DNA of 53,212 nucleotides, the filler included, from Jimgerdemannia flammicorona (taxonomy: Eukaryota): assembly GCA_003990765.1 (NCBI GenBank). It is 2 parts of 2 records of this genome, joined end to end, with 100 filler letters (N's around TTAATTAATTAA, not from the genome) between each part and the next. Parts side by side here need not be neighbours in the genome. Positions count along the whole stretch, not along the records: positions 1 to 26,575 come from RBNJ01000718.1; 1 more part is not named here. One strand, given 5' to 3'. Under the pieces are notes generated by a model. It saw nothing but the letters and a program-made list of their open reading frames with translations, had not been told where the DNA came from and made no database searches. This document shows positions 12,647-48,479 of the stretch, piece after piece. The position numbers and the translations under genes were made by a program. The number at the start of each line of letters is the position of its first letter. The first letter of the stretch is position 1.

Positions 12647-13831
12647 ATGTTTACCCTGCCAACAACCACCAGGGCCGCCACCAATTGGGTCTTCATGCTC
12701 AATTTTCTCATGGCCATCGTCAACGCATCGCCCATCGGACTTATCGCACGCGATGTCCCCAATCCCACCACCGGCCCTTTCAACCTCGACGCCCATGGCA
12801 TCGTCCTCGCCGTCCTGGCCATTATCAGCGGCATCTACTTCTGCTTCTTCGGATACCGCTTCTTCAAGATGACCATGTTTTTGAGTGAGTGCTCGATTTA
12901 ATTCCAATTCCAATTCCCGCATGTCGATTTCTGTTACTCACCCTCCATCCACGTCCCATACAGCCGGCTTCTGGGTCTTTGGCAACATCACCTACATCGG
13001 CATGATCAACGGCGGTTCCAACCAGACGCTGACGCTCATCATCTCAATCATCGTCGGTCTTCTCGGTGGCGCCATTCTCACCTGTTGCTGGCACATTGGC
13101 CTCTACTTCCTGGCCGCCCTTGCGGGTTACGCCCTCGCACTGTGGATCCTAGGCTGGAAATCCGGAGGTCTTATTGAGAGCTCCACCGGTCGCGTCATCC
13201 TCATCGTCGTGCTTATCATTGTGTTTGTGCTCCTCATCATCTTCTTCGAGCGATGGATGGTCATCATCTCCACTTCCGTCATCGGCGCCTATCTCATTAT
13301 TCTCGGCATCGATATCTTTGCCCAGACCGTGAGTTTTTTTTTTTTTTTTTTTTTTTTTTCCGCGACGCTTCTATACTGGATTGGAGGATTGTTATTACTA
13401 CCACATTGCTTATAAGCTCTGTCATTAACTCGCACCCAACACGCTTCTCTCTCTCAGGGCTTCGCCAGCAATGCCGCTTCCTTCCTGTCTTCCAATCACA
13501 GCACCAATTCGAACACGAACATGGACTGGAAAACCTACATCATGCTTGCCGCCTTCATTGCCCTGGCCATCATTGGCATTTTCTTCCAGAACCGCATCCA
13601 CGGCGCCCGCAACTTCCGTACCGGCTCAAGTAAGCATATTTCCCTTCTTGATTAATGGCTTCATTCATTAAAAAGTGTAACAGCAAACTCACGTCTTCCC
13701 ACTCCCCGCTTCAAAAAATTTTAGCCGCCCCCTACGGCTACGGTAGCAAGTGGGGAAGACGTCGTGGCACGCCCGTAGAGCCCGCCACCACCACCCCACG
13801 CAAGAGCTGGGGTTTGTTCCGTCGCAACTAA
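12647..13831 (+). CDS. DUF4203 / TM7S3-TMEM198-like multi-pass membrane protein; 4 exons
   Basis: Exons 12647-12884, 12964-13328, 13458-13629, 13725-13831, all GT-AG and in frame. Family motifs G..FCFFGYRFFK.TMFL.GF and STSVIGAY.IILGID.F; basic C-terminal tail. Confidence 0.85.
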
Positions 13832-16250
13832 GCGGACATTCGCGGACATATGGCGGATTCGTTCAAACAACTGATCCCAAACTACCCACTACTATTTGAT
13901 ATGTCAGTGATCCCAATGATTTTAATACTCGGAAGAACTATTATTACAATTTCTTTCTTTTCTTTCTTTCTCAAAAGGGAGGCGGTTGCACGGCATGGGT
14001 GCTACACTACCCTGCCACTCTCCACTCGTCAAACCCCGACTGTTTGATTCACCGACGGGTGTACGCTCTCTGACACATTTTTGTATGCATCATCTAGTAT
14101 CTAGGAATTTCTTTGAAAACACATTAATTCTGTAAATATAAATAACAAATGGCGAATACCTCCATCTTCATGACAATACATATATATATTTATTTCGATA
14201 TTCGCTTTTTTACAAACGAAAGATGGTATGATCCATGATCGATCTAGTTTAAGGGATATGGGTTTCCTGTCTGGTATTGCTAACAAACGAAAGGCAAGAG
14301 TGTAAAGTGAAGAAGTTCGTGGCGGAAGCTGAGAAAGATTTTAAACAGAAATGGAAAAGTGTCACTCAGTGAATCCAGTCTCGCGTTATATGTAGACAAG
14401 AGGAAACTTTATCCCTTTCCAATAGGCGCATGCGGAACATGCGCTTTCTATGCGGTATGTGCTTCTATCGGTGCTATACCGCTAAACCCGCACCGATCCT
14501 CCAATGCCATCTCATTCAACAAACGATCCCCAATCTCCTAAAAAATGCACTTCCAGGGTCTCTCTTATGTATCTCGCGCTCTCCAGCCTCCTCACCACCG
14601 TCCTTGCGGCGCCCACGCAAGACCCAATCTGCATCATCGGCGGTGGCCCGGCGGGTCTAACGACGGTGTCGCTTCTGCACGAAAAGGGCTATCCGACAGT
14701 GGTGTTTGAGAAGCAGCCAGAAGTGGGCGGCAATGCCGCACACTTCAGGTGGGTGGATACAAAATCGACATGGGGCCCCTTCTCCTGGATAACTCGTACA
14801 CATATGTGCTGGCGCTCATCAAGAAGTTTGGTATGCACACCGCGACGGTGCTGGGCGAGACCGGGACGGTGACGGCGTACGACTACAATACCGGGGTGTT
14901 GATCAACTCGCCCTGCTTCAACGAGACCACCACCACGCCCGAGATCCGCGCCGCCATTACAAAGTTCAAAGCCGAGCTCAAAAAGTACCCGGAGATGGAC
15001 GACGGATCCGCAGGCCACCGTCTCCGTCGGCCGGAGCTGTACGTGACATTCGCCCAGTGGCTCGCGGAGCATCTCGTCGTCCCTATCGAGCACGAGGGAT
15101 ACGGGTCCCTCTCGGAGACGCCGGCGATGTACGTACTCAACTTTCTCAACACCAAGACCAGCGCGTCCCTCGTCTTCGCCGAGACCAATATTGACACCAT
15201 CGCCGAGGGTTGGAACGCCCTCATGGAGAACATGGCCAGCGCCCTCCCAGATGTCCGCACAGGGGTGAACATCGTCAGCGTCCAAAGGCCGGCTGGGGAT
15301 TACGACGGCCAGCAAGTCTCCGTCGTCTATTACGACGTGCACAACGACACACAGACCCAGAAATGCCAGTCCGTCGTGATTGCCTTCCCGCAGCTGCTGA
15401 GCGGCTGGAGTTCCTTGGCCTTGACGCGCGCGAGCGCAAACTCTTCCGCAACGTCCAACACACCATTTCTCGGCCGCCTTCAGCGCCCCCGGGTTGCCCA
15501 TGAAGGACGGCGGGGAGCTTCTCCAGCTCATTAATGGGACCGAACAGCATTGTCGAGGGTGAGCCGTGGCGATCCTGGCGCAGTCGCCCGAGGTGTACAC
15601 CAGCTACGCGTGGTTCCGTAACCAGAGCGTCGAGCAGAGTAATGACAACCTCCCAAAGATCGTCGAGGAGAAGATCATTGAGTTCGTTGATAGGGCGACG
15701 AAGGGGGGGGTCAAGGCCAAGGTTATCGAGGTTGATCAATGGGACTATTTCCCCCATGTGGGCACCAAGGCACTGTTGAATGGGTTATATTAATCAAAAG
15801 GCCGAGAAGATTCAAGGGTATCGTCGTACTTACTATACGGGGTCGCTATTTGAGTTCGAGATCGTCGAGCGGACGATGGACGCCGCGTACGATCTTGTCA
15901 ACAATCATTTCTAGACCTGTGTTTAATTATTTTTGGCTGCCATGTAGAATTTTTCCTCACAATTAATAAAATCAATAATCAATTCACTACAAGCCGTCTG
16001 AATGACACACAATGGGAACCTTAGTGAAAGGGCAATGCTCCACACTACATCCAGATGATAACATCCAGATGATACCAAGCCACCTTGTTTATAACCTCCT
16101 TTAAAAATACATTGGCATTTGGCAATAGAGCCCAATGGCTGGAGCTGGGCCTCTACAAACGTGCCCAGGGCTTCGGCGAGGCATCGGAGAACTTTATGGT
16201 CTGCTGGAGTCTAAAGATTTTCACGACGCGACCGCCACGCGCACACCACG
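13329..16250 (+). repeat. Segmental duplication, copy A
   Basis: Collinear with about 21089-24670: DUF4203 intron 2 to 3' UTR, intergenic DNA, the oxidoreductase gene and its downstream flank. Confidence 0.9.
14545..15914 (+). pseudogene. Frameshifted copy of the secreted FAD-dependent oxidoreductase at 22809-24245
   Basis: Aligns by eye to the intact paralog. Frameshifting indels near 14567, 14731, 15398 and 15790; deletions at the QHDKQRET and MDRGLGVLL segments; coding split over several ORF-track frames. Confidence 0.9.
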
Positions 16251-17955: not shown

Positions 17956-18603
17956 CATGGATCGAAGAAATTGTGCAGCCCACAAGCTCGACGGCGAAGG
18001 CCAGAGGTTCACAGTTTCACGGACAGTTAGTGGTAGAGGGTGTGGATAATCAAGTAGTTTGTGTCTTTGATACGTCATATTATTTACGACGTTTCTGGAA
18101 GGTGACGACTTTCCCTTATACCCTCGGCCACGTATTGTTATCCTTTCTAACACATTGTAAATAAAGTATGGCTAGTTTTTGACTTACTGGTTGCTTTTTA
18201 TGAATATTTTGTTTGAACATCATTTGCTTCGGTGAACCGTGCGAATTGCATACCATCTGCCATCCAAAATCGAGAAGCACGTCGTTTGCGCTGAGCTCGG
18301 TAAAACATGTGCTGAGGCTCTCCAAATACGGAATAACATGGACGTGGTCAAAAACAACCAATTAGTGGAAGATGATTTATAAGCATCTTCGGAGGACCTG
18401 GTAACAGTCTCTATGGAAAGTACGGAGTACGGAGCGACAAACTACCCATTCGAAGAATTTCTGCGCAATTATATACTTTTTGTAGGTGTGGTTGATGACG
18501 TATACAGTACGTCATTATCAGGTAGGATGCAATATAAGCCACCCGAATGCAGTGGAACAAATCCCAGAACTCCTTCCCACTCTCACCCCATTGACATATT
18601 GAC

Positions 18604-19230
18604 ATGGAAGACCATGACCACGACCACAACTATTCCCACCACATTCCGACTCCACGCCCGCAGGTTCCCCGGCCGACTCCGCACTCGCAACCTAAGCTCA
18701 CGCTAGTCACGGGGGAGGGCGTCAACATCCCGCTTGATCTGGACTTGGCGAGGCACTGCGCCCGGCTGGCCCGCAAGCTGCACACCCTGGATGCATACGA
18801 CGTGCTGACGGTGACGGTTCCGTTCCGCCAAGAGGTGGTCCAGATGGCCCTCGAGTACTGCGACCACCTACGCCAGAAAGAACTGCAGTCGCGCGCCGCC
18901 TCCGCCTCGAACGACTCGCTCTACGACGTGCCATCGCCCAGCGCCATCGACGAGTCCGTACGCAGCACAGGTGGGGACTATATCTTCGACGATTGGGAGT
19001 TCGCGTTTGTGGCTCAGGAGGCCGAGGGTCGCCTGGTGTCGGAGCTCAACTCCACCGCCCATTTTTTGGGGATCGCACGGCTACTCGATCTCGTCACTAT
19101 TAAGATTATGATGATGAGCCAGGAAAAGCAGCCCCACGAGGTTGCGTCCATGTTTGGCGTGCAGGGCGCGCAGAACGGCGAGGACGTTGTCAGCGCGTTG
19201 GCGCAAAGTATGCAGGGGCTCAAGTGGTAG
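18604..19230 (+). CDS. Divergent Skp1-like protein, intronless
   Basis: POZ part (KLTLVTGEG..LARHC, LEYCDH) and dimerisation part (DDWEFAFV..ELNSTAHFLGIARLLDLVT..KQPHEVASMFGV) match the Skp1 pattern ELILAANYLDI..LLD...KTPEEIR..FNI. Confidence 0.75.
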   Translation: MEDHDHDHNYSHHIPTPRPQVPRPTPHSQPKLTLVTGEGVNIPLDLDLARHCARLARKLHTLDAYDVLTVTVPFRQEVVQMALEYCDHLRQKELQSRAASASNDSLYDVPSPSAIDESVRSTGGDYIFDDWEFAFVAQEAEGRLVSELNSTAHFLGIARLLDLVTIKIMMMSQEKQPHEVASMFGVQGAQNGEDVVSALAQSMQGLKW

Positions 19231-19820
19231 GAGGAAGGAAACGCGTGCGGTGCGAGAGGGGAGGGTTTGGGAGATTTTTGTGGCGACGGTGACGTTGGGT
19301 TTGTCGAGGGCCGGTGAGAAACATTTCGCGCAACGGGCAGTGATTTTTGTCGATTTACGTGCCGCGTGGAGTACGGAAAGGCTTTGGTGAATTCTACACT
19401 CGTTGAAACTGAAGGCGTCCTGCGTCGTGACTCTGCGTGTCGAAAATCAATTCGTACAGTGGCTCGTTTCTCCCATTTGACGTGTACAGCTTCTTCAATT
19501 CTTCGCGATTTCGCTTTGGGCGTACTCATATCTCATTTTGTTTTGTTACTTCCGGCGGGGATGATGTGTTGTCGTTTTTTGTGTTTGTGTCAACTATGTT
19601 TGTGTCAACTATTCCCATGCATGTCACGCGGTCACTTCTAATACCTAGCTTTGTTCATCGAGGAAGGGGGTTTGGTGGACTTGGAGGTCGATAAAACAAT
19701 GATTTAATGCAGCCCTATGAATGCTATGGTTATTATATGTCGTACTGTTGCACGTGATCATGACCTGTGGCTTTGGGGCACTGTCCGCCGTCCTCGTTTT
19801 GGAAGCAGATCATTGCCACC

Positions 19821-21088
19821 ATGACAACCTCTCAAGACCAGCGCTACTGCATCATCACCGGCGCATCCTCGGGGCTAGGTAGGCCGCTTCCATCTGAACA
19901 ATGAACAGTAGCAGCTACCCGGCCTGAACCCCACCCACCCCCAGGCTTCGAGATTGCCCGCCAGCTTCTGCTGCAGGAGAACTGGCATCTCATCCTAGGT
20001 CAGTATTGAACCTTCCCACAATCCTATCATTTCTTTTATTCCCTCGTTAATTTCAATACATGCGCAACCCCAGCATGCCGCAACGACTCCCGCGCGCAAG
20101 CAGCCCTGTCATCATTTCCCTCTGATCTCGAGACACGTAATTGCGTCGCGGAGACGGCGCTCCTTGACATGGCTTCGCTCGATTCCGTGCGTGCATTTGC
20201 GCAGTCATATATTGAGAAGAAACTACCGTTGCACGTGCTGGTCAACAATATATCCTTTTTATTTCTTTGTGATCCTGCATGTGCAGCTCAAATGAGAACG
20301 CGAATCGATTGAGGCCTTAATGTGAACGGGATAACGCGTCCACACGCCGGGGTGTACGAGATAGACTACAGTGTAACTGAGGACGGGTTCGAGACCAAGT
20401 GAGTGGGTGTGGGTTCGGTGGAGAGACGAGGGCAACTCTGCTTTTTTCTTTAATCGTTACGCTGGACAACAAACCCATATTTTGTAGCATCGCCGTGAAT
20501 TACATGGGCCCTTTCCTGCTCACGAACCTTCTACTGCCCGTACTCGAGAGGTCTGCGCCGGCGCGCATCGTCAATGTGTCGTCGCTGCTTTACAGGCAGG
20601 TGAATAAAGGTAGATTGTTGCAAGAAAGGATAAATTGAGGTTCCTTCTGGCAATTTCATCCTTGGCTCGAATCAAGCACTCACCCGATATCATCGTATTT
20701 TCCTTCCCTTCAACCTGCCTAAGCCACCGCCCTCTCGCACCTATCGCCCATCGGCCCCCTCACCGCAACCGCAACCTATCCCCTCTCGAAGCTCTACCTA
20801 AACTGGCACACCCACCATTTCGCGCACCATATCCTCCCCACCGGGGTGACCACGCATGCCGTGTGCCCGGGCTTCATCCCGACGACGGGGCTAGGCCGCG
20901 CGGGACCATGGTACGCGCGTTGGGCAATGCAGAACGTCATGATTTGGATGCCCTTTGCCGTGTCTGTCGAGCGCGGGGCCGAGAATTGTGTGGGCGTTAT
21001 CGTCGGTGAAGCGGAGGAAGGAAATGGAATGGTATGGGTAAAAGGGGGATGGGTGCCCGGGGTCGAGGGGGCAGAGGAGGCGGAGATG
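19821..21088 (+). CDS. Retinol dehydrogenase/WWOX-like short-chain dehydrogenase (SDR); 6 exons including one AT-AC intron; native last exon absent
   Basis: Exons 19821-19878, 19945-19998, 20074-20249, 20346-20398, 20488-20609, 20724-21088. Motifs: IITGASSGLG, LACRN, LDMASLDSVRAFA, LVNN|AG, TEDGFE, VNYMGPFLLT, RIVNVSS, YPLSK (YxxxK), AVCPG. Confidence 0.85.
20250..20345 (+). other. U12-type (minor spliceosome) AT-AC intron, 96 nt
   Basis: 5' end ATATCCTTT, branch-like CCTTAAT at 20315-20321, 3' end CAC. Removal restores the SDR NNAG motif in frame. Confidence 0.88.
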
Positions 21089-21092
21089 GTAT

Positions 21093-21123
<31 letters not shown>

Positions 21124-21150
21124 CTGCGAAGCTTCTATATGCTGGGTTGG

Positions 21151-21194
<44 letters not shown>
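21151..21194. repeat. (ATT)n microsatellite
   Basis: About 14 perfect ATT units inside the duplicated intron. Confidence 0.95.
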
Positions 21195-21250
21195 CGCATT
21201 ACTTATAAACTCTGACATTAACTCACGCCCAACACACCTCTCTCTCACAG

Positions 21251-21616
21251 GGCTTCGCCAGCAATGTCGCTTCCTTCCTGTCATCCAATCACAGCACCAA
21301 TTCGAACACGACCATGGACTGGAAATACTATCTCATGCTTGCCGCCTTCATTGTCCTGGCCATCATCGGCATTTTCTTCCAGAGCCGCATCCACGGCGCC
21401 CGCAACTTCCGTACCGGCTCAAGTAAGCATATTTACCTTCTTTATTAATTGGGTTCATTTCATTAAAAAGTGCAACATCAAACTCACGTCATCCCACTCC
21501 CCCCTTCAAAAATTCTAGCCGCCCCCTACGGCTACGGTAGCAGGTGGGGAAGGCGTCGTGGCACGTCCGCCGCCACCACCCCCCGCAAGCGCTGGGGTTG
21601 GTTCCGTCGCAACTAA
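21251..21616 (+). CDS. Orphan exons 3-4 of a second DUF4203 copy, possibly spliced onto the SDR
   Basis: Exons 21251-21422 and 21519-21616 keep splice sites and an open frame (GFASNVASF...RKRWGWFRRN*). Exons 1-2 are absent. Confidence 0.6.
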
Positions 21617-22808
21617 GCGGACACTCGCGGATATATGGCGGATTCGTTCAAACAACTGACCCACTATTATTTTATATGTCAGTGATCCCTGTGATTTTAA
21701 TACTCGGACGAACTATTGTTACGATTTCTTTCTTTCTTTTTGTTCTTTCTTTCCCAAAAGGGAAGCGGTTGCACAAGCTGGCGTGGCATGCTACACTACT
21801 TTGCCATTCTCCACTCGTCAAACCCGACTGTATTATTCACCGACGGGTGTACGTTTTCTGACATATTTTGCATGCATCATCATCCAGTGTCCAGGAATTC
21901 CTTTGAAAACACGTTAATTATGTAAATATAAATAACAAATGGCGAATACCTCCATCTTCATGACAATACATATACATATTTACTTTGATATTCGCTTTTT
22001 TACAAACGAAAAATGGGACGATCAACATAGGAGTGTTTGGTTTAAGGAATGTGGGGTTTCCTGGCTGGTATTGCTAATGAACGGGATCAACATAAAGACA
22101 AGGGTGTCGAGCCAAAAAGTTCGTGTGGCTGAGAAGATTTTAAATAGACTCAAAGTGAATCCAGTCTCGCCTAACTTGGGTATTTCATTACCTTGACTTT
22201 CTTTATTTCTTTGACTCCTGGAGTCGGGTACTGGTGGGGCTTGAAAGGTGTACAACTATCTTGATCTAAGATTTAATTTCTCTTAATGCTGGCTATTTAT
22301 ATAAGGTTGTATGGCCAAGTATGCGGCCAAGTTATTTTGGCATTGCTAGGATATTTTTCGTGGATGGGTATATAAGGCAGTGCACCAATTAATGTCTATT
22401 CCCTATTTAGTATACCGTACCGTCACAATATAAATAATGGCGAATAATGATACTACATATATACATATTTACTTTGATATTCGCTTTTTAACAAACGAAG
22501 AATGTGGGTTTTCCGTCTCGTATTGCTAACGAGCGGGATCAACATAAAGGCAAGGGTGTCAAGCCAAAAATTCGTGAGGTTGAGTAAACGGAAATAGAAA
22601 AGTGTCACTCAAAGGGAATCCAGTACAGACTGGCCGAGTGGGAGCGAACGCAAACACACCCCTTTCCAATAGGCTCCATGCGGCGCATGTGGCATGCGCG
22701 CTGTATGCATCTCTATCGGGACTATATTATGCCCTGATTCCCTATATAAACCCGCACGCGATTCTCCAATGCCATCTCATTCGACAAAATATCCCAATCT
22801 CCTAAAAA

Positions 22809-24245
22809 ATGCGCTTCCAGGGCCTCTCTTATCTCGCGCTCTCCAGCCTCCTCCTCACCATCGTCCTCGCGGCGCCCACGCAAGACCAACACGACAAGCA
22901 GCGCGAGACAAACCCAATCTGCATCATCGGCGGCGGCCCGGCGGGTCTAACGACGGCATCGCTTCTGCACGAAAAAGGCTATCGGACGGTGGTATTTGAG
23001 AAACAGCTAAAAGTGGGCGGCAAATGCCGCACACTTCAGGTGGGCGGATACAAGATCGACATGGGGGCCCTTTTCCTAGATAACTCGTACACACATGTGC
23101 TGGCGCTCATCAAGAAGTTTGGTATGCACACCGCGACGGTGCTGGACGGGACCGGGGCAGTAACGGCGTACGACTACAATACCGGGGCGTTGGTTAACAT
23201 GCCCTACTTCAACGAGACCTCCGCCACGCCCGAGATCCGCGCCGCCATTGCAAAGTTCAAAGCCGAGCTCAAAAAGTACCCGGAGATGGACGACGGATCC
23301 GCGGGCCACCGTCTCCGTCGGCCGGAGCTGTACGTGCCGTTCGCCAAGTGGCTTATGGACAGGGGCTTGGGTGTACTCTTGGAGCTTTTTGTCGTCCCTA
23401 TCGAGCACGAGGGATACGGGTCCCTTTCGGAGACGCCGGCGATGTACGTACTCAACTTCCTTAACACCAAGACCAGCGCGTCCCTCGTCTTCGCTGAGAC
23501 CAATGTTGACACCATCGTCGAGGGCTGGAACGCCCTCATGGAGAACATGGCCCGCGCCCTCCCTGATGTCCGCACGGGGATGCACATCGTCAGCGTCCAA
23601 AGGCCGGCTGGGGATGATCACTACGGTCATCAAGTCTCCGTCGTCTACTACGACGTGCACAACCACAAACACATCCAGAAATGCCAGTCGGTCGTGATCG
23701 CCTTCCCGCAGCTGCTGGAGCGGCTCGAGTTCCTTGGCCTTGACGCGCGCGAGCGCAACCTCTTCTACAACGTCCAACACACCACCTATTTCTCGGCCGC
23801 CTTCAGCGCCCCCGGGTTGCCCATGAAGAACGGCGAGGAGCTGCTCCAGCTCGTTAATGGGAACGAGACGCGGGTGAAGAGCATTGGCGAGGGTGAGCCC
23901 ATGTCGATCCTGGCGCAGTCGCCCGAGGTGTACACCAGCTACGCGTGGTTCCGTGACCAGAGGGTCGAGCAGAATAATCACAGGCTCCCAGAGATCGTCG
24001 AGAAGAAGGTCAGTGGGTTCGTTGATAGGGCGACGAAGGGGAAGATCAAGGCCAAGGTTATCGAGGTTGATCAGTGGGACTATTTTCCCCATGTGGACAC
24101 CAAGGCGCTGTTAAATGGGTTCTATCAGGAGGCCGAGAAGATTCAGGGGTATCGTCGTACATACTATACGGGGTCACTGTTTGGGTTCGAGACCGTCGAG
24201 CGGACGATGAACGCCGCGTACGATCTTGTCAACAATCATTTCTAG
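22809..24245 (+). CDS. Secreted FAD-dependent oxidoreductase (flavin amine oxidase-like), intronless
   Basis: Signal-peptide-like N-terminus, ICIIGGGPAGL Rossmann motif, FEK..VGGKC, DMGA, and C-terminal QWDYFPHV..QG.RRTYYTG; 478 aa uninterrupted. Confidence 0.88.
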   Translation: MRFQGLSYLALSSLLLTIVLAAPTQDQHDKQRETNPICIIGGGPAGLTTASLLHEKGYRTVVFEKQLKVGGKCRTLQVGGYKIDMGALFLDNSYTHVLALIKKFGMHTATVLDGTGAVTAYDYNTGALVNMPYFNETSATPEIRAAIAKFKAELKKYPEMDDGSAGHRLRRPELYVPFAKWLMDRGLGVLLELFVVPIEHEGYGSLSETPAMYVLNFLNTKTSASLVFAETNVDTIVEGWNALMENMARALPDVRTGMHIVSVQRPAGDDHYGHQVSVVYYDVHNHKHIQKCQSVVIAFPQLLERLEFLGLDARERNLFYNVQHTTYFSAAFSAPGLPMKNGEELLQLVNGNETRVKSIGEGEPMSILAQSPEVYTSYAWFRDQRVEQNNHRLPEIVEKKVSGFVDRATKGKIKAKVIEVDQWDYFPHVDTKALLNGFYQEAEKIQGYRRTYYTGSLFGFETVERTMNAAYDLVNNHF

Positions 24246-24757
24246 ACGCGTGTTTGATTATTTTTGTCTGCCATGTAAATTTTTCCTCATAGTTAAAAAA
24301 AAATTAACTCGCGCAATGGGAACCCTATTAAAAGGGCAATGCTCCATACCACATCCAGATGATAACATCCAGATGATACCAAGCCACCTTGTTTATAACC
24401 TCGCTTAAAAAGATACATTGGCTTGGATTCTGGATTTAGCAATAGAGCCCAATGGCTGGAGCTGGGCTTCTACAAACGTGCCCCCTCCCCAGGCCGTTAA
24501 ACGTCAAAAAGCCTTTCAAGAACACAAAACACCCAGTCCTCGACGACACCGCCTTCACCACACCTACTCCCAAAGTCTTGCGCGCCGAGCGAGGTAAAGC
24601 AACAACACATCGGCTCGCTGGTTCTGTCGGAGTCAAGATTTTCACGACGCGCACCGCCACGCGCGTACCGCCACGCGCACCACCACGCGCACCACCACGC
24701 GCACCACACCACCACCCAGATCCGGCGAGTCGCACACAGGGTGTCACGAGTTGGTGA

Positions 24758-25915
24758 TACTATGCAACACAATTGAAATAGCCATAAACAAACCCTATGT
24801 CATCAGTCCCAATTCAAATAGACGTAAACAAAACGTTAATTAGAATAAAAACGTCACATATTTCAACCTCTTGTTTACACCTATTTGAATTGGAGCCCAT
24901 AGTATATCTATTGTAAAATAGGCTATTTCATACATATATATTATATAAAATAGGCTATTTCATCACATATATCAATTATAAAATAGTCATATATTTATTA
25001 TAAAATAGGCTTGTTTATGGCTATTTCAATTGTGTTGTATAGGATGTCTTGTTATCTAATACATTCCATAATCATGTTTCTTTCTTTTCTTTTTTTTTTA
25101 TTATACTTGAGCGCGCCATTCCTGTTTCGCATTTTTCCAAAGAATCTTGGTTTCACAAGGCATATTATGTACATATCCCGGTGTGAATAATGCTATTATG
25201 CAACACAATTGAAATAGTCATATGTCATTATTATAAATTATAAAATAGGTTTCAATTGTGTTTCATAGTATTATTCTCCGTAAAGCTCGCGCTCCCCTCT
25301 TCAACTCTAGCACCAACCGGTATCGGGCCCGCATTATCATCCGCTTTGTCTCGTGTCAAATGCCGGCACCACGAGATGCGTAGCTTCAGAACGTCACATG
25401 TCGGCGTGCCATCTGCAAAGCTGGTAGCTCAGCCTACTATGCAATACAATTGAAATAGCCGTATTTTATAATAGATATATGTAATGACATCGGCTTTGTT
25501 TATGGCTATTTTAATTGTATTGCATAGTAGTTGAGAAACCGTCGTCCAATTGAGTCGGAGTCAATGCCGTCTGCTTTTCTTGGGCACATGTGAATGAGGC
25601 ACATGACCCGTTCTCGGGGTGCCTCTAAGGATTCAGGCGCTTCTATTTGTGACCTTCTAGCATGCAAACCACACAATTTCTCACATGTTTTTTTTTGTAA
25701 AATACTATGGAGTTCCAAAACTGAGGTCCCTTGCCTCCTTTAGACGAAATTCATCAATAATAGAATACTTTTGAATAAAAAGTAAAGTTTTTAAAATACA
25801 TATGAATAAATACTGGTACAACATTTTGTGTATATGTACATAATACTACACAATTGAAATGGCCATAAACAAACCGATTGTCATCACATATATCTATTAT
25901 AAAAATATTGTGTTG
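24758..25915. mobile_element. Cluster of tiny palindromic MITE-like elements with TACTATGCAACACAATTGAAATAGCC ends
   Basis: Copies at about 24758-25044 (with a different nested element about 24805-24904 ending CATAGTA), 25194-25270, 25435-25529 and a partial at 25844-25915. Confidence 0.75.
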
Positions 25916-26575: not shown

Positions 26576-26675
26576 NNNNNNNNNNNNNNNNNNNNNNNNN
26601 NNNNNNNNNNNNNNNNNNNTTAATTAATTAANNNNNNNNNNNNNNNNNNNNNNNNNNNNNNNNNNNNNNNNNNNN
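26576..26675. other. Artificial contig linker N44-TTAATTAATTAA-N44
   Basis: A 12-mer with stops in all six frames, centred in a 100-nt gap; the flanking contigs are 26575 and 26537 bp. Confidence 0.95.
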
Positions 26676-26949: not shown

Positions 26950-29900
26950 CGGAGAGAGATGTCCTTAACTGTATATATATAGATATATTGGTCTGACTTT
27001 TGAATTAGCTTCTTTATCTAAATAGCAGATATAACACCACATCTGGGCTTTGGTTTCTTTTTGGTATATTTAGATTATAGTTTGATATCTCTCAGAGAGA
27101 TTATATTGATTCACCAACTGATGTAGAGATTCTTCTGAGTAAGCTAGGATTTCTACGAATGAGGTTATGCTGAGAGAGGTATACTATGTAGAAGATTTGT
27201 CTTATGATATAGTTTCTATGTTGTAAAAGTATATTCTTACATATATATCTTAGAGAGTTTTTATGTTATTCTATTTCCAAATGTGGTAATATTTCCTTCA
27301 GAGTTTCTTTGCATCTTAAGGTAGAATTTGTCAGCAGATTCTTAGTTAAGATAGCACTTACTTGTTCTACTATCAATAAGGACTTTGACAGAGTTTCCTT
27401 TGATTTTCCCTTATAGGAAGATATATATATTTTGTATTGATTTTTTACTAAATAGTAATTGTTTCTAAGGTAGTTTTTTCTTTCCAATCTTATACTTCTT
27501 TATCTTTATTATTAATATTCTTGGATTCAAGAATACATGTAATGTATTCTCTTATGTATTTGAAACAGTATATCTTGATTCTATGAAGATATCATCCTAT
27601 GGAGACATATCTATCAGTAATGTACTGATACTATTTCTGGTCTCTATCTTGAGGTTCTTTGATACAGATTATCTTCTGTACCTTAGTCTTCTCCTTGGTC
27701 TTGTCAGGGTGCTTTTCTGTTGATCCAAAGGCTTTTTCTCCTCTGTTGGAGAGTGATAGTTTATTTGTTTCCTCTACTTCAAGGTTATTGCATATCACTT
27801 TGATAATAGCTTGGGTAATTCATTTTCTACATGTGATTTCGACAGCCTTTTGTCCAGTGTTATGTAGTAGGACCTTGATCTCACCTTTGAATTCTTGGTC
27901 TATAATTCCTTTAGCAACACAAAGTCTTTCTTCTTTGGCCAGGCTACTCCTTTCTGCAAGATGAATATAGGTTTCTCTAGGTACTTCCATTTCAATACCT
28001 GTGCTAATAGTTACTTACTTGTCTGATTCAATAGTCACTTCTATATTAGAGTAGAGGTCATAGCTAGCATCAAATTTGTATACTTTGTCTGAGATCTTTA
28101 TGACAATATGAAATCTCTTGACCTTGATTTTCTCAATGATTACTTTGAGTCATCTCTTATTATAGTAACAGTGTGTGGGGAGGATGGCCCTTTGTTGTTA
28201 TTGGTTTTCTTATCAGAGTATTTGCAGGATATATATTCTTCTTCTTATAGTAGAAACATACTCTCTTTATAAGTTCTTCTGTTTTTTTATTAGATAGTTT
28301 CTTAAATCCTTTTTGTAATCTTGAGGGCTCATTCTGAGATTCATACTTTTTTTTCAAATTGATATTATTTATCTCCTTCGTTGTTGATTCTATTATCTCT
28401 TAGTCTTTGGACTGCAAGAATAGTATATGCTTGAGTAATAGTATATTCTCCTTATTTATAGATTTTTCTAATAACTATCTAGAGATAATATTAAAGTAAT
28501 AGATAGCTCAGGTTCTATTTATAGTCTGCTATTATCAGCTGTATTCTGCTTCTATAGTATTTAGGAGAGTTTTTAATCTTATTGCAAATGCTTCAAGGTC
28601 CTCTTTTCTATTATTATAGAATTACAAGTTCTTGAGCTTAGTTCTGGCTTCTGAAATATGGGCAGAGCTATGGAACTACTGAATAATTAGCTTCTTTAAT
28701 TCTATAGTAGCTGGGTGAGCTTCATAGTCAGAGTGATCATTATCTCTATTGCTTGTGACAACTTCAGTATGGGTTTCTCAGATAAGTGGGTATACTGGTA
28801 GGTTGTACCATCACTGGGCTACTGTATCTGTAAAGTATATGGTAACCTTTTCTACTTATGAGTCTGTAGTTGCTTAGAGATCTTCAATCTATAGTAGATA
28901 TTATTATCAAGAATACTATCTAGACACTAATTATCATTTTATTCATTGATACAATAATTGGTATTGACTTATCCTATAAATATAATTACTTAGTCTACTT
29001 TGTCTTTGAATAGAGTGAGGTAAAGTTCTTTTGTAGACTTATTTGTTTCAATGCTGAGGTAAAGAGCTTGAGTAAGGATGGCTACTTGATCAGTTAATAC
29101 TGCTATCTTATCATTTGCTAATATCATTCTGCTGTCTTTGTTGTCTATTTGGTGAGATGATTGGGTCTCATCTTCTTCTTCTATTGTTATAGTGTATCAA
29201 TCTTAATTTTTCTATAATATTGCTAAGGTGAGTAAGCTTGTAGGCTGGTGGTTTTGACAGAGTAACTATTTAGTCTACAGTGATTCTTGATAGGCTTGAC
29301 ATTCTTAGTGGTAGTTCTGTAATAGTACTGGAGCCATCAATGGCTAGTTTAGGGATTTTTTCAATTATCCTCCTAGATTTAGATAATGTGGCAAGGATTT
29401 TACTAGGTCCAGTAGCTTGTGATTCTTATTACTAAATTATTCTTACTTATATGTGAGGAATTCAATAATAGAAGTGTCATTTTTTTTAATAGAATAGTAT
29501 TCCTTATAGTTTGAAAAGGTCTTTGCTTTGTAGTTGCAATAATTTAAAAGGTTGTTCAGGAAGTATTCAGTTGTAGTCTTGATGAATTCTTAGGTATATT
29601 TCTTATAGAAGATGGCTGCTAACTAGTTTATTGAAATTCTCCTTATGTTTGGGAGTATAGGTGACTTCTTTATTTAGTGTGAGAAAAGTATTGAATACTT
29701 CTTAAATGGTTACATTATTGAGTTTATCAAACTCCTCTTGGCTGGTGTGAGTTACCGTCTACTTGGTAATGATTCTGTTGACTTCTTTAGCTTGAGTCTG
29801 AGGAGTATCCAGAGTGAAGATTTGCTTTGATTATTACTAACAATATTAATGATATTGACTAGTTCTGATTATTTATAGTAGATCACTTGAAGAAAGATTG

Positions 29901-30350
29901 CTCATAGATAGGAAGTAAACATCTACTACTATCAAATTATAATAAAACTATATACTGATAGAATTAATATATTGTAGGTAATCAATAGTAACTATTAGTC
30001 TAAAGTTCTGAGTTCTTGAGGAAGTGCTGAGTTTCAGTTATCTATATAGTAGAGTCTAAGTATCACTTTTGGTTCTAGTGCTAATAGGAATGACCATACT
30101 TATATTCTAAGTTAATTAGACTTAAAATAATTAACAAGTTAGATTTGAGGAGTTTCTGTAATAAGAATACTACTTTATTATTATATTTAGAGAAAGCAGA
30201 GCTGAGGTTGTAATATACTCAGTATAGAGAGTATTTATATATATTTGAGACTATAACTAAATATAGTATATATACTAAGAATATCTCTATATAATTATAC
30301 TACTTTGGATAACTATAACTACTAATCAGAAATTCCAGAGACTTGTAACA
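26950..30350 (-). mobile_element. Degenerate LTR retroelement: LTR, PBS, gag with zinc knuckle, dUTPase; no pol visible
   Basis: LTR about 29939-30350; mutated PBS-like TTTGATAGTAGTAG at about 29924-29937; gag remnants (YF.D..AQ*W, EARTKLKNL; CFY knuckle about 28230-28265); dUTPase about 27713-28137; many TA-generated stops. Confidence 0.7.
27713..28137 (-). pseudogene. dut: Element-borne trimeric dUTPase remnant
   Basis: Manual translation gives DASYDLYS, RSSLA, GIIDQEFKGEIKVLL.N, *ITQAI and RGEKAFGST, matching dUTPase motifs I-V; two stop codons. Confidence 0.85.
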
Positions 30351-30426
30351 ATTTATTATAATTATTATAAGCTATATTTAATAGCTAAATTAGATATGTA
30401 TCTTTAATTTTGTTTAATTAGTAGTT

Positions 30427-30902
30427 ATAATAAAACTATATACTAATAGAATTAATATATTGCAGATAATCAAACTGACTATCAGTCCTAAGTTCTGAGT
30501 TCTTATAAGAAAGTACAGAGTTCCAGTTATATTTTATAGTAGAGTTCAGATATTACTTTTGAGATCTTATTCTAATAGAAGTACTGTACTTACATATATC
30601 TCAAGTTGATCAGACTTAGAATCATTAACTAGTTGAATCTAAGGATTCTGTAATAAGAACACTACTTTATTCTTATATTTAGAGAAAGTAGAGCTGAGGT
30701 TACAATATATATACTCAGTATAGAGAGTATTTATACATATTTGAGACTATGACTAAATATAGTATACTGGATATATATATATATATTTATGCCATTTTAG
30801 ATAACTATAACTGTTAGTCAAAAATTCTATAGAAATTTCTATAGAAATTTCTATCAGAATTTTTATTAAAATTTTCAGTAGCTTATAGATATATATATAA
30901 CA
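30427..30902 (-). mobile_element. Second copy of the same LTR (solo or tandem)
   Basis: Direct repeat of about 29939-30350, differing mostly by transitions. Confidence 0.7.
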
Positions 30903-31157
30903 ATTTATTATAGTAGTTTACTTTGATATTATTAGTAAAATAAAGCTTAATCTTATTAATATATATATTTATATTTAAGATTAATAATATTTTTAAATAA
31001 TATATATATAATTAAAAAAGTCTATTATATAATAAATTATTTAATAAATATATAAAATAATAGTAATAAAATAAAAATATTAGTTTTAAAATTTAAATTT
31101 TATAAATTTTTTATTTTTTATTAAGTTTATATTAAATTTTATATTTATATTAAATAG

Positions 31158-33922
31158 TATGACATATGATACGAAATAGAAACAGAAAATAGACATTTGA
31201 TTATAGTATCTGAATCTGATTTCCAATTTAGTATAGTGTAGAAAATTACCTTTACTGTGGATACTATATCTAAAACATTATCAATGAAACTGTTACTATA
31301 GTATTTCAACAATATTGAAATATTTCAACATTTTCTAAATAACTTATAACTTAGCCTCATAGTAGCAGAATTAGTGCACAAATCTGTATAAATAATTCAG
31401 TATTTTAGAGTAAATAAACCTCAGTCAGATCAAGTTAGTTCAATTCTAAAAATAAGTCTTCTTTATATACTCTTCCCTCTATACAAAATCTGTCCAACTT
31501 ACCAAGTTCCATGTCTGCTACATTATAATTTAGTGCTCATTGGCTAGTGATTCAAGATGAATTCTCACTTTTAAGCTGAAAAATGAATAACTGCCAGACT
31601 GCCATATAGACCATTATATCATGCATAGTATTTGTCTGTACTATCTGCTGTTAATTAGTTGTTCCAGTTGTCAGCCTCATTTCTGTAAACTATTGTTAGT
31701 ATTGAATAATAGATACTCTGCAAAGGACCACATTATTAAGTTAATAGCTGGATTGCTCCTTAGTTCGAGAGACAATATTACAAGAATTAATTGCCAAAAA
31801 ATACCAAACAAACCACCATGCCAAATGGACCACTGTACAGACCACAAAGAAAACTGCTATATGAACCATTGCTACCTAAATTTTGAAGATATTGTTTGTC
31901 TGTACCATTTGCTGTTAATTGGTTGTTCCAGTTGTCAGCCTTGTTTCCATAAACTATCATTAGTATTGAACAATAGATACTCTATAAAGGACTATATCAT
32001 TGAGTTAATAGCCAGATTGCTCCTTAGTTTGAGGGATAATATTATAAGAATTAATTGCCAAAAAATGCCAAACAAACCACCATGCTGAACAGACCACTGT
32101 ATGGACTATAAAGAAAACTGCTATATGAACTATAGCTATCTAAATTTTGAAGACATTATTTGTTTGTACCATCTGCTGTTAATTGGTTATTCCAGTTATT
32201 AGTCTCATTTCTGTAAACCATTGGTATTGAATAATAGATGCTCTGTAAAGGACTATATCATTGAGTTAATAGCTGAGTTGCTCCTTAGTTTGAGGGACAA
32301 TATTATAAGAATTAATTACTAAAAAACACCAAATGAATCACTATACTGAATGGACTACTATTATCTGCCACTTTTGAAAATATGACCCATTAACTGTACT
32401 TGATGAGTCTGGAAGCCATTCTGCAACATATGATTTGCCACCACCTGACTTTTGAAGATATGACCCATTAACTGTACTCAATAAGCCTAGAAGCTGTCCT
32501 GCAATATATAATTTACTACCTGACTTTTGAAGATATGATCTGTTCTGTAATATATAATTTGCCACCACCCAACTTTTGAAGATACAAACCTCTCAAATTT
32601 GAAGACACTGTTTTGTCTCTGTGCCATCTGCTATTAATTGGTTATTCTAGTTATCAGTCTCATTTCTGTGAACTGTCAGTATTGAACAATAGATATTTTG
32701 CAAAAGACTGTATCATTGAGTTAATAGCCAGATCACTCCTTAGTTTGAGAGACAATGTTATAAGAATTAATTGCTAAAAAACACCAAATGAACCACTATG
32801 CTGAATGCTGTCTGACATAAGAATACTATCTGACTTTTAATGATATATGAACTATCTGAGTAAAGAATGTCACTCAACCTTTGAAGATGCCATCACTCAC
32901 CCAACTTTTGAAGATATTGTTGTCCAACTTTTGATAATATATGAATGGAATGGACTGCCTCAAAGAATTAAAAAGATGTTGTATATGAACTGCTCAAGTA
33001 AAGAATGCTATCTAATATAAGAATGCTCTGACTTTTGATGATATATGAACTGCCCAAGTAAAGAATACTGCTCAATATATGAATGGACTACTCTGGAGAA
33101 TTAAAAGATGTCACCTGAGTTAATTATTTGAAGAACACTGCCCACTATAAAAAAACTGCCCAAGATGACATATAAATAGACTACCATATGATATATGAAT
33201 GGACTGCTATGGAGAATTAAAAGACACCATACAAACCATCATCTGACTTTTGATAATATACAAACAGAATGGACTGCTCTGGAGAATTTGAAGATGAGCC
33301 ACCACTCAATTTTTGAAGACTCCATCACCTGAATTACTATCTAAACTGCCACCCAATTTTTGAAGACTCCATTATCTAAAACTGCTGCCCAAATTAATTA
33401 TTTGAAGACTTTTGGAACCTTGAATAACATTTTAACAATTGTCTGAATAGATCATAAATATATCCACATAGGGGAAACAAATATATAAATATTGCAATAT
33501 AAGAATTTGAATAGATATTTTTATATCAAAAATAACCTATTTAGGGGGAAGATGTGATATATGGTATAAAATAGAAACAGGAAATAGACATTCAATTGTA
33601 GTACCTGAATCCAATTTCCAATTTAGTATAGTGTAGAAAATTACCTTTACTATGAATACTGTATCAAAAATATTATTAGTGAAACTGTTACCATAGCATT
33701 TTGAAAATATTGAAATATTTCAACATTTTCTAAATAACTCATAACTTAGCCTCATAGTAGCAGAATTAGCACACAAATCTGTATAAATAACCCAGTATTT
33801 TAGAGTGAATAAACCTCAGTCAGATCAAGTCAGTTTAATTCCAAAAATAAGTCTTCTTTACATATCCTTCCCTCCATACAAAATCCATCCAACTTACTAA
33901 GTTCCACATTTACTATATTACA
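31158..33922 (+). mobile_element. Complete non-autonomous LTR element (TRIM/LARD-like)
   Basis: 370-bp LTRs at 31158-31527 and 33553-33922 (TG..CA, mutated to TA..TA in the 5' copy); PPT TTAGGGGGAAGA directly before the 3' LTR; ATAG target-site duplication; interior made of tandem repeats. Confidence 0.85.
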
Positions 33923-34658
33923 ATAGTAAGATAATTAGAATTAATAGACTATAATAATAATTAATAATAAAGTAATTAATTTTCAATATATATAAAAGCT
34001 ATCTTTAGAATAATTAAAAATATCTTTTATAATATTATAAATATTTTATAACTCTTTTTATATTTCATTTTTACTATATATTAGATATTATATATATTTA
34101 TTTAGAGTAATTTATAAATAAAATTTAATAATAATTTTATTGTTGATTAATTTATCTATATTATAAGTAGATAATCTATTAAATTATAATTTACTTTAAT
34201 AGAATTAAAAAATATATAAGATATTTTAAATTTTGTTATTTTTAATTTATTATTATTAATGAAATAAATATATTAAATAAAATATTTTTGACAATATTAT
34301 CTTATATTAAAAACTTTAATATATTTCTTTAAAGCTGATAATTCTCTTTAATAATTTATATACTTTTTAAAAATTCTCCATTTTTAGCTCTCATAGTAAT
34401 GTTTGATCTGTAATAAGATCTCATATATATTTATCTTAATTTATCATAGATAAACTTTCCAAAAATACCTTTTAGATTAATTACTAATGATATATAAAAA
34501 TAAAAATAAAAAAACCAAACTAAAGAAATAGAATAAGATATTAAAACTTTGAAATTAAACATTTTTTGTGAAGTCTATAAACGCCACACTCAATCATCAA
34601 AATCATATATTTAACATGTCAAATTTATAGAGAAAATAATCACGAAGACATTGCATAA

Positions 34659-39390: not shown

Positions 39391-42300
39391 GATTCTCTCA
39401 TCTTTTCCTAAGTCAAACTCAAATTTGATATATATGGTAAGGAGGAATTTGAAACCTTCTGAGTCACTCCTGAATACTGTTAGCCTAGGATATATTACCA
39501 ATGATAAAGCATGAAATGGTACAAGAGCAGATCATTTATTTGACATACTACCAGAATAGCTCACAAGTGATTTCCACAATAGTACTTGGCTAGAATTAAG
39601 ACCATGGTTAAGCAAATTCTAACAGCTAGACCAATTCTGTCTCAAAAATAATTCCATAGACCTAAAAAGAAAAAATCATAAACCAAGAAGGAAGAACCTA
39701 AGTATGAATTATTCAGAGCTCTCTCTGTATCTACTTCTTAGATACTCTGTAATCCTGAATCTATCTAGTTAAGTATCTTTAAGAAACTCACAGAAGGAGA
39801 AAGAAATGAACTCAAAAGAAGTGGAGTATGCTTCTATTGCTGAAAGATAGGACATATAGCCAGTGTCTGCCTTAACCAAAAACTCTAAACTATAATATAA
39901 GCAACTGCCATCACTCTGTACCCTCTCAACAATCTGACTACCAAAATACTAGACTTTGTCAAGTTAAGGAAAACAGCCATTACCCCTACTAAAGAAAGCC
40001 AAATGATAGTTAGATATAATTTATATATAGCCAAAGAAGTTATAATTTCTAACTGAGAAGTCAAGTAAGTCTATACAGGAATCAGTATTCAAATCTCTGA
40101 AGGATATATTGGAAGAATATATTGTTGTAGCAGCTTAGTATTAAAAGAACTCTCAGTAAAAGAAGGAGTCATTGATGAAGATTATATAGATAAAATTATT
40201 ATTCTCATTAAGAACTATAGTTTGATACTATTCAAGATCTCTATTAGTTACTATATTGTTCAGATCTTATTTAAGAAAATTAAGTCAACTCTGATAGTTA
40301 AAAAGTCTCTGAACTACTATCTACTATTTAAGAATTCAAAGGATTTAGCTTATCAAACATAGCCCCAGCTCAATCTATTACAAATAAGAAGAAATAATTC
40401 TATAGAAAAATCAAAGATAGATTTATATCTAGTGATCAATACCCTCATAGTATTGGAATATACTCCTTCTGAATGATTGACAATTGCTTCTTATATATCA
40501 ATAAATTAGTTCAATAATGAGCTAACAGAAGGAAGCCTCTTATAATCAAAATTACCACTATTAGATCAGACAAACTGCTTACTCTATAAGCTTTTGTTAA
40601 TCAAGCCCCTGTTAAGATTATGATAGACAGCAGTGCCTCAGGCAATTTCATCATTAAAGAAACAGTCAATAGACCTAAAGTCTTGATCTCTCTAGTATAA
40701 CAAATCTAAGTAGTTATTACTACTAATGGAACCTTATATATTACTAGCAAGGAAGTTTGTAACCTATTCTTCAGAATTGATAACTATTGAGTATATATTA
40801 CTCTCTAAATCATACTACTCCTAGACAATGAGATTATTCTAAGAACACTATGATTAAAATATAAAAACCTCATAATAGATTAAGTGAACCATTTCTTGAC
40901 TATTAAAAAAGGATGCTACAATTTTAAACAGCAAGACAAAAGAGATCCACTCAGCTCTAGAGACCTTGATCTAAAGATTACATATATCAATAAACTACAA
41001 CTTAAGAAATTAATAAAGAAATGTCCTCTCTTTACTATCTTTATATATCAATCTAAAGCAGAACCTGAGAATATCAAAGAAGACTTTTTCAAAGTTAATA
41101 GTTGTATCAGACCCTTATTCTAGAAATTTTGAGATATATTCTTAAAGAAACTTTCCAAAGGTTTACCACTCAAACAAGCAGTTGACTATATAATCAAGAC
41201 TATTTCAGATACCAAGTCAACCTTCAAGTCAATCTACTATATATCTTCTAGAGAAATTAGTACACTCAAGAGAGAGGTTGATGGGTCTCTAGGATAAGGA
41301 TTTATTAGACCTAGTATATTACCATATAGTATATTAGTTCTCTTGATTATCAAGAAAGGAGAAGACCTCTAAATATATATTAATTACTGAGACCTCAATG
41401 AACAGATCATCAAGAACTATTACCCACTACTCCAAATTAATAAAATCTTCAATAGGCTTACCAATCTATAATTTATGAGCTCTTTTGACCAATAAAATAG
41501 TTACTGACAAATTGCTATAAAAGAAGAATATATCTACAAAACTATCTTTCAAACTCACTATAGATATTTTAAGTTCTTAGTTATGCCCTTTAGCTTAACT
41601 AATGCTCTCACAACCTTTCAGACTCTGATGAACACTATCTTATATCTATATCTAAACAAATTTGTTATTATCTATATTGATGACATTCTAGTCTTCAGCA
41701 AAACTATGGAGAAATATCTTGAATATCTTGAACTAGTACTACTGAAACTCCAAGAAAACTATCTCTTTGTAAAGCTTAGTAAATATTAATTCCTTCTGAA
41801 GAAAATTCAATTTCTTAGATATATTATTACTCTTAATGAAATCAAAGTAGACTCTAGCAAAATCTCTGTAATCAAGAAATGACCCAGACCCAAAAAGCTG
41901 AAAGACCTTCAATCATTTCTAGGATTAGCAAAGTATTACAGATGATTTATTATGAACTTTGCAAAGATTACTACTGCTCTTACTCAATTGACTAAGCATT
42001 ATAAAAAAGATGGACAAATCTAGACTATAAAGTAAGAAAAAGACTTTAATAATCTTATTAAATAGGGACCTAAATAATACTTAGCCTTTCAAGCCTTGAA
42101 AGATACTCTGATAACCACTTCAGTACTTTAAGAAGCAAATTCTGTCCTACTATATGAAGTTACTACTGATATCTCTGATCTAGCTCTTAGAGTAATACTT
42201 ATACAAAAAAGTCACCTTATGGTCAATTATTCTCATAAGTTCAATAATACCAAAATTAACTATATTACCTATATAAAGAAAATATTAGCCATTATAGACA

Positions 42301-45300: not shown

Positions 45301-46640
45301 TAAATCAAAATAATAATTATAAATATTAAATATATATCTAGCTATAACTACTGAAATCTATAACTACTGAAATCTATAACTACAGTTATGCTGACATTTA
45401 GAATGTTATTATTAACTGATCTATAGCACCTCTGTCTCTTATGAATATTCATAGCTTAGTACTCCTCTATTTCATAGAAGTCTGATGGAATACTCTAGAA
45501 GATATAGTTAACTACTACTATGATACAGATATTATCAAAATATCTCAACATCAGAAACTCATTATATATAAACACTGGAAATATTTTTATAAGTACAGAA
45601 CCTATATTTTCTACCTCTAAGTCACTATTACCAAAATGGTTGCTACTCTGACCTATGGCTAAATCAATGATATAGTACAAGAACTCAATTAGAAATATAT
45701 TGAGTATACTAACTATATCCTATAAATGCCTTAAGTGAGATATATCATGAAGGATATCTATAATATAATTCAGTTCTATAATAATGAAGCAGAAGATAAT
45801 GATCTCTCTGATACTGATATGATCTCCAACCAAAGATCTTTGCCAATTTTAGTCATTCTACTAATCTTACCAATAAACTTATAATAGTTTATAACTATCT
45901 ATAAGACCTACTGAAATAATGACTACTGGTATGAGTATCTACTTACATTTATATCTGACTACTTTAACTATAATAAAGAAATAGATGAACATAATTTATA
46001 CCTCCAGACAACTCTTAAGATAGAACCAATGATTCCATCTCCCAAGTATGAGCAATATGAAGAACAACTGTTAGCTTACTGTAACTTTGCAATATATAGT
46101 ACCATAATATACCAAAGATATGCTGATAGTAAATCTGATAAAAGCAAAGATAATATATTTCTTCTCTACTTACTAATACTATATCCAGCATATGAAACAG
46201 ATGATATTATTCTATGGGATGATTACTTTATTTCAATATACTACTATATAAATAAATAAGGAGACATAATCCAGAAACTACTCTTTCTAGATAACTACTT
46301 TATCAGAGATAATATCATTGATAGTAATTTTATCAAAGAGTAGCCAGTTAGTATTTAAATCTATAAATAGCTTAGCAGTCATTAGTATAGTTAGATTAGC
46401 TTAGTACTATATAACTATATTCTAACTCTTCAGTTAGTAGATCTCTTGATATATCAGTTCACACTTTGTATTATATAACTGTATTCTAACTTATCAAGTA
46501 CTAAAGTGCTGTATCTATATTTAGTCTAGCCCAGATAGCCACTCATTATTATAAATACTCTCTCTCCCAGATCTTAAGAACTCAGACAGAAATTGAGATA
46601 AGAATCAGACAAATACTTCTTCACACAAATATCTCATCAC
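39390..46640 (+). mobile_element. Degenerate Ty3/Gypsy chromovirus-like LTR retrotransposon, 5' part missing
   Basis: CFYC*KIGHIASVC knuckle about 39828; protease IDSSASGNFI about 40620; RT MPFSLTNA and YIDDILVFS at 41583-41700; RNase H; integrase; chromodomain EYEVEQ..YIVK*KGY at 44452-44530. 3' LTR limits uncertain. Confidence 0.85.
43662..44265. mobile_element. hAT-type foldback MITE nested in the Gypsy integrase
   Basis: TAGTGCTC...GAGTACTA ends, arms inverted over most of the length, and an 8-bp TSD ATCTGACT/ATCAGACT interrupting the KFIGPFKV-like motif. Confidence 0.8.
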
Positions 46641-46649
46641 ACACTACTT

Positions 46650-48425: not shown

Positions 48426-48479
<54 letters not shown>

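Follow-up and report, generated by a model that had tools for sequence, protein, structure and literature searches.

A predicted short-chain dehydrogenase/reductase (SDR) gene in the fungus Jimgerdemannia flammicorona raises the question of what kind of intron divides its cofactor-site motif NNAG, and of which spliceosome takes that intron out. We examined the gene within a window of 53,212 nt, meaning the whole stretch of DNA that was analyzed, filler included; two runs of N, 44 letters each, lie at 26576-26619 and 26632-26675. The original prediction placed an AT-AC intron of the minor (U12-dependent) class at 20250-20345. J. flammicorona is an early-diverging fungus outside Dikarya and belongs to Mucoromycota, Mucoromycotina, order Endogonales. 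We found that transcripts lose a segment of 96 nt whose excision joins AAT precisely to GCC, restoring NNAG and an intact SDR. We conclude that 20250-20345 is very probably a U12-type AT-AC intron removed by the minor spliceosome. From its U12-type motifs and the observed splice we infer that J. flammicorona has a working minor spliceosome.

The host gene lies on the plus strand, as do all of its features given here, and is a multi-exon gene with its ATG at 19821. Exon 1 (19821-19878, MTTSQDQRYCIITGASSGLG) carries the TGxxxGxG cofactor motif and is identical to the start of the public protein model, P0001. Intron 1 (19879-19944, 66 nt, GT-AG, reading GTAGGC..CCCCAG) is predicted and agrees with P0001, and exon 2 (19945-19998) was likewise placed by prediction and P0001. 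Intron 2 (19999-20073, 75 nt, GT-AG) leads into exon 3 (20074-20249), which ends ..LPLHVLVNN. Exon 4 (20346-20398) starts AGVYEIDY and is followed by intron 4 (20399-20487, 89 nt, GT-AG). Exon 5 (20488-20609) encodes ..IAVNYMGPF..RIVNVSS.. and matched adh_short by itself with an E value of 9.7e-05. Beyond intron 5 (20610-20723, 114 nt, GT-AG), exon 6 (20724-21088) contains YPLSK, an instance of the YxxxK active-site motif, as well as ..CPGFIPT.., and is 100% identical to P0001. The public model has more exons past 21088.

Once spliced, the predicted protein contains the classical SDR motifs TGASSGLG, NNAG (after the AT-AC splice), NVSS (with the catalytic Ser) and YPLSK. The adh_short matches of single exons were under the Pfam cut-off, and the precomputed domains of P0001 are PF00106 and PF13561. 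These matches and domains, together with the homologs, bear out the earlier description of a fungal SDR gene, and by its motifs the host gene is assigned to the classical short-chain dehydrogenases/reductases. We also searched metagenomes for related loci. A scan with P0001 found no relative of the SDR locus. A scan for L-[VI]-N-N followed by RTATCCTTT returned at least 118 loci, and no SDR-like frame lay upstream of the motif among the matches listed; one weak six-frame match among the listed loci (L023, E 1e-4) was on the opposite strand. The metagenome scans are no evidence either way on whether the NN/AG intron position is conserved.

We examined the sequence of the intron and its flanks, and every letter that had been reported for them proved correct. 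Exon 3 ends GTC AAC AAT at 20249, the intron begins with ATATCCTTTTT at 20250, CCTTAAT lies 24 nt before the intron's end, the last letters are CAC up to 20345, and exon 4 begins GCC GGG GTG at 20346. The intron is 96 nt long and in phase 0. The upstream exon encodes ..LVNN and the downstream exon AGV.., and the splice rebuilds LVNNAG. Read without splicing, 20250-20345 runs into an in-frame stop directly after ..LVNNISFLFLCDPACAAQMRTRID.

U12-type introns have the 5' splice site consensus /RTATCCTTT. The 5' splice site at 20250-20258 (ATATCCTTT) matches it at nine of nine positions. The 5' splice site is described as a defining feature of U12-type introns (PMC3584512). The branch-site-like motif CCTTAAT (20315-20321) fits CCTTRAY at seven of seven positions; the base before it is G and not T, and its final letter is T and not C. 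We assigned the putative branch adenosine to 20320 by this motif, which puts it 25 nt before the 3' splice site at 20345. We also considered GATAAC as a branch site. Its adenosine (about 20333-20334) would stand 11-12 nt from the 3' end, an ideal distance, but its agreement with the consensus is limited to TAAC, and we keep it as a weak alternative to CCTTAAT. The terminal AC (20344-20345) is the fourth AC downstream of CCTTAAT, and the splice skips the three nearer ones, which end at 20327, 20335 and 20343. The last 24 nt of the intron (GTGAACGGGATAACGCGTCCACAC) contain 10 pyrimidines with a longest run of 3 and form no polypyrimidine tract, whereas the GT-AG introns of the same gene have C/T-rich 3' ends.

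Two features of the intron sit less neatly with its class. The optimum distance from branch site to 3' splice site in U12-type introns is given as 11-13 nt (PMC3584512), and minor introns are described as avoiding phase 0, with a phase preference of 1>2>0 (PMC10639083). In our judgment, phase 0 and a distance of 25 nt from the putative branch adenosine do not overturn the classification of 20250-20345 as U12-type.

We asked how often such motifs would be found by chance. RTATCCTT occurs 6 times in the window on both strands against 5.43 expected, and CCTTRAY occurs 25 times against 31.6 expected. Neither motif is enriched window-wide, and the argument therefore rests on where the motifs stand. 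The odds of the donor motif falling at the position fixed by protein homology are about 5e-5, and those of CCTTRAY falling in the last 40 nt are about 0.01; the joint chance of both placements, calculated from the window motif counts, is roughly 5e-7. We looked for other U12-like introns in the window at the five further exact RTATCCTT sites and with a relaxed donor/branch scan. None in a coding context was found among 33862, 48571 and 47-116 on the minus strand, which are AT-rich or non-coding, and the minus-strand sites 40100 and 45750 lie in low-GC blocks. Blocks of 24-31% GC occupy 28000-34000 and 40000-48000, between gene-bearing stretches of 50-58% GC. Minus-strand open reading frames at 49955-52172 look retroelement-like by eye.

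In the mechanism that we propose, U11 and then U6atac would pair with the 5' end of the intron, ATATCCTTT. U12 would pair with CCTTAAT and bulge the branch adenosine at about 20320, and the cut would follow at CAC/G. Removal would be carried out by the minor spliceosome, presumably kept in this lineage as in other Mucoromycota. A search of the window with Rfam found no snRNA match, and nothing reached gathering scores. With the limit relaxed to E 0.5, the only matches were two weak ones to mir-458, on both strands of a palindrome at 25432-25532, which reached 31 bits where the gathering score is 59; the palindrome is most probably no more than a hairpin or an inverted repeat.

The main alternative for the class of this intron accepts the AT-AC splice as real and assigns it to the major (U2-dependent) spliceosome, as holds for a minority of AT-AC introns. 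AT-AC termini are indeed reported not to be exclusive to U12-type introns (PMC3584512), a spacing of 25 nt from the branch motif looks closer to that of U2 introns than to the optimum of 11-13 nt, and the lack of an Rfam snRNA match in the window fits this alternative as well. The motifs themselves argue the other way. The 5' end matches the U12-type consensus completely and does not look like GTRAGT with its G changed to A. The U2-dependent reading also has to accommodate a CCTTRAY near the 3' end, at the low chance given above, and the missing polypyrimidine tract. Minor snRNAs are, moreover, reported from relatives in the same phylum (PMC10639083, PMC11347168, PMC2396436). We consider removal by the major spliceosome unlikely and retain the assignment to the minor class.

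We compared the AT-AC intron with the other introns that could be drawn. We enumerated GT-AG, GC-AG, AT-AC, AT-AG and GT-AC pairs that were in frame and stop-free (n = 133) and scored each of the 133 candidate proteins against a profile of 131 homologs. All 133 scored models share one extra V, with exon 6 begun three bases early, which leaves the ranking unaffected. The AT-AC intron 20250-20345 gave the top score of 276.9 bits. Its sole tie was an AT-AC intron shifted by 2 nt (20248-20343), which yields the same protein from a different mRNA. The best GT-AG candidate reached 264.2 bits, 12.7 bits under the AT-AC intron. The enumeration thus upholds the original claim that no GT donor rebuilds LVNNAG.

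The deposited annotation draws this part of the gene differently. A protein search with exon 6 identified P0001, at 100% identity, as the 382-aa NCBI entry 'hypothetical protein BC938DRAFT_482304 [Jimgerdemannia flammicorona]', and tblastn mapped it wholly within the window at 19821-21613. Instead of the AT-AC intron, P0001 has a GT-AG intron at 20269-20313, which inserts 17 residues within NNAG (..LVNNISFLFLCLNVNGITRPHAGVYEIDY..). The gene predictor read on into the intron and took GT (20269) and AG (20313) as its splice sites, the kind of mis-modeling that had been foreseen for GT-AG-only predictors. We aligned 133 rows, consisting of the AT-AC model, P0001 and the 131 homologs. NNAG is present in 104 of the 133 rows, and residues between NN and AG occur in P0001 alone and in 0 of the 131 homologs. 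The 17 residues of P0001 are spurious and represent an annotation error.

The 3' part of the public model also departs from the SDR. Its remainder (21089-21613, plus strand) lies outside the mapped contigs and consists of an intron containing poly-T and (ATT)n, followed by a tail that copies the neighboring membrane-protein gene. The last 89 residues of P0001 fall in the second copy of a segmental duplication (13388-16107 and 21181-24411; about 3 kb, 88-93% identity; 11 repeat families) and repeat the tail of P0017 (PF13886, 12647-13828). Because the tail of P0001 repeats that of a neighboring membrane protein, the SDR entry may be chimeric or may reflect a gene fusion. Several other observations concern this region. 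An intact 479-aa open reading frame occupies 22806-24245, and a second copy at 14689-15790 is broken over several frames and looks like a decayed duplicate. Poly-T runs of about 35-60 nt occur at 21092-21195, near 13300-13390 and at 48430-48480, and the (ATT)n repeat lies in the intron after SDR exon 6. One X2 contig, from the second of the sequencing runs described below, extends about 600 nt past 21088.

We looked for the splice in two public sequencing runs from two studies (X1 and X2), which were available as assembled contigs and not raw reads and whose label as RNA is a guess. Contigs from both runs were mapped on 18400-21088; sequence beyond 21088 was left out on account of its poly-T and (ATT)n repeat. 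The GT-AG joints of intron 4 (20398/20488) and intron 5 (20609/20724) are present in both runs, and that of intron 2 (19998/20074) is present in one X1 contig and not in X2. Since X1 and X2 carry the GT-AG joints of neighboring introns, the runs hold spliced RNA or cDNA. No joint for intron 1 was listed among the X1 and X2 contigs on 18400-21088. Upstream, high-depth contigs of both runs cover 18602-19879, unbroken from an upstream open reading frame (18595-19230) through a 600-nt 'intergenic' stretch. The X1 contig extends to the final base of SDR exon 1, and the X2 contig breaks off at 19738, leaving a loose end of 22 nt. Read-through, antisense transcription or an extended 3' UTR could each account for these contigs.

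The joint 20249/20346 was found in contigs of both X1 and X2, exactly as predicted. It skips 96 nt with AT..AC ends and has zero shared letters. Each run has one AT-AC junction contig, at a depth of 12.3 in X1 and 101.4 in X2. The X2 junction contig measures 60 nt, 30 on either side of the joint, has no mismatch and falls 1 letter under the bridging criterion of 31 per side; by our reading of the assembler, 60 nt is the size expected of a junction-specific unitig. Exon 3 contigs of both runs stop exactly at 20249, and exon 4 contigs begin exactly at 20346. The AT-AC splice is, in our judgment, almost certainly real.

These contigs also bear on the possibility that the public GT-AG intron (20269-20313, adding 17 residues) reflects the true or main mRNA and that the AT-AC form is a minor by-product. 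That intron is in frame and stop-free and has the standing of a deposited annotation. Its joint, 20268/20314, is listed among the contigs of neither run, whereas the AT-AC joint is in both. Its protein scored 257.8 bits against 276.9 for the AT-AC model, and its extra residues split NNAG at a point where no homolog in the alignment has an insertion. We regard this possibility as very improbable. It is just as hard to credit that the AT-AC joint is an artefact of reverse-transcriptase template switching, of assembly error or of a processed genomic copy, as the reliance on contigs, the 30 nt per side and the guessed RNA label might allow, when two runs of two studies agree, the flanking contigs end and start exactly at the joint, the skipped segment has AT..AC ends with U12 motifs, the join restores a conserved protein motif, the absence of shared letters leaves no repeat for template switching, and a processed copy would itself derive from the AT-AC splice.

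An unspliced form of the intron is present as well. Both runs have an unspliced contig across 20220-20375, at a depth of 30 in X1 and 101.7 in X2. The X2 unspliced contig has a single difference from the window, at 20299, between the two motifs. Over introns 2, 4 and 5 the depth bins are fully explained by exon letters alone, and there is therefore no unspliced contig at those introns. With no such contig there, genomic DNA becomes a less likely origin of the unspliced form. U12-type introns are reported to be removed more slowly (PMC3584512), and the retention of 20250-20345 would fit slower removal than that of its neighbors. The retention is no more than a hint, since contigs give no measure of abundance and lose rare forms.

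We considered what this intron means for the wider picture. It is a known type of intron combined with a documented annotation error, and not a surprise. [quoted passage not shown] What the locus offers is an instance, backed by transcripts, of minor-class splicing from Endogonales, a plant-associated, early-diverging fungal order. P0001 shows the concrete cost of GT-AG-only prediction, which here amounts to 17 residues inside the cofactor-site motif, and surveys that classify annotated introns only would miss the intron at 20250-20345. Because GT-AG-only annotation hides such introns, the counts given for Mucoromycota in PMC11347168 ('few to none') may be underestimates. A further idea is that Endogonales keep a working minor spliceosome whose choice of 3' splice site is looser than that of animals and plants. 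Its basis is the cut 25 nt after the branch-like motif, with three AC dinucleotides passed over, and we hold it to be possible but doubtful. The phase 0 position in a metabolic SDR, and not in an 'information-processing' gene, could be the trace of a gain specific to the lineage or of a recognition rule that is drifting.

Minor-class splicing has been documented in other fungi outside Dikarya. PMC2396436 describes minor snRNAs from chytrids as well as from the zygomycetes Rhizopus, Phycomyces and Mucor. [quoted passage not shown] PMC10639083 reports all four minor snRNAs from Rhizophagus (R. irregularis) and predicts 205 minor introns there; it puts their number at about 4 for Rhizopus and about 20 for Phycomyces, and describes them as wholly absent from Dikarya. 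Since minor snRNAs and introns are known in other Mucoromycota, a U12-type intron in Endogonales is expected biology. We found no report of minor introns in Endogonales or Jimgerdemannia in the main texts that were searched.

We compared the J. flammicorona locus with known systems. Among SDRs, the host protein is closest to the RDH11-14 and DHRS13-like (retinol dehydrogenase-like) enzymes, at 29-44% identity over 42-74% of its length, and shares with them TGxxxGxG, NNAG and YxxxK. Unlike these enzymes, the public host model has a C-terminal tail copied from a neighboring membrane-protein gene. The intron resembles the human and plant U12-type introns described by Turunen et al. [quoted passage not shown] It differs from them in a branch-to-3' splice site distance outside 11-13 nt, and here we infer the role of the snRNPs. 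It also resembles the U12 AT-AC introns reported for Rhizopus oryzae, Phycomyces blakesleeanus, R. irregularis and B. meristosporus, with which it shares RTATCCTT, a CCTTRAY-like motif, AT-AC termini and no pyrimidine tract. J. flammicorona belongs to the same broad lineage as these non-Dikarya fungi (Mucoromycota/early-diverging), from which minor snRNAs are reported, but to a different order, Endogonales. Compared with other U12 introns of non-Dikarya fungi, the J. flammicorona intron stands apart in the 25 nt between its motif and the 3' splice site, in its metabolic SDR host and in its phase 0 position.
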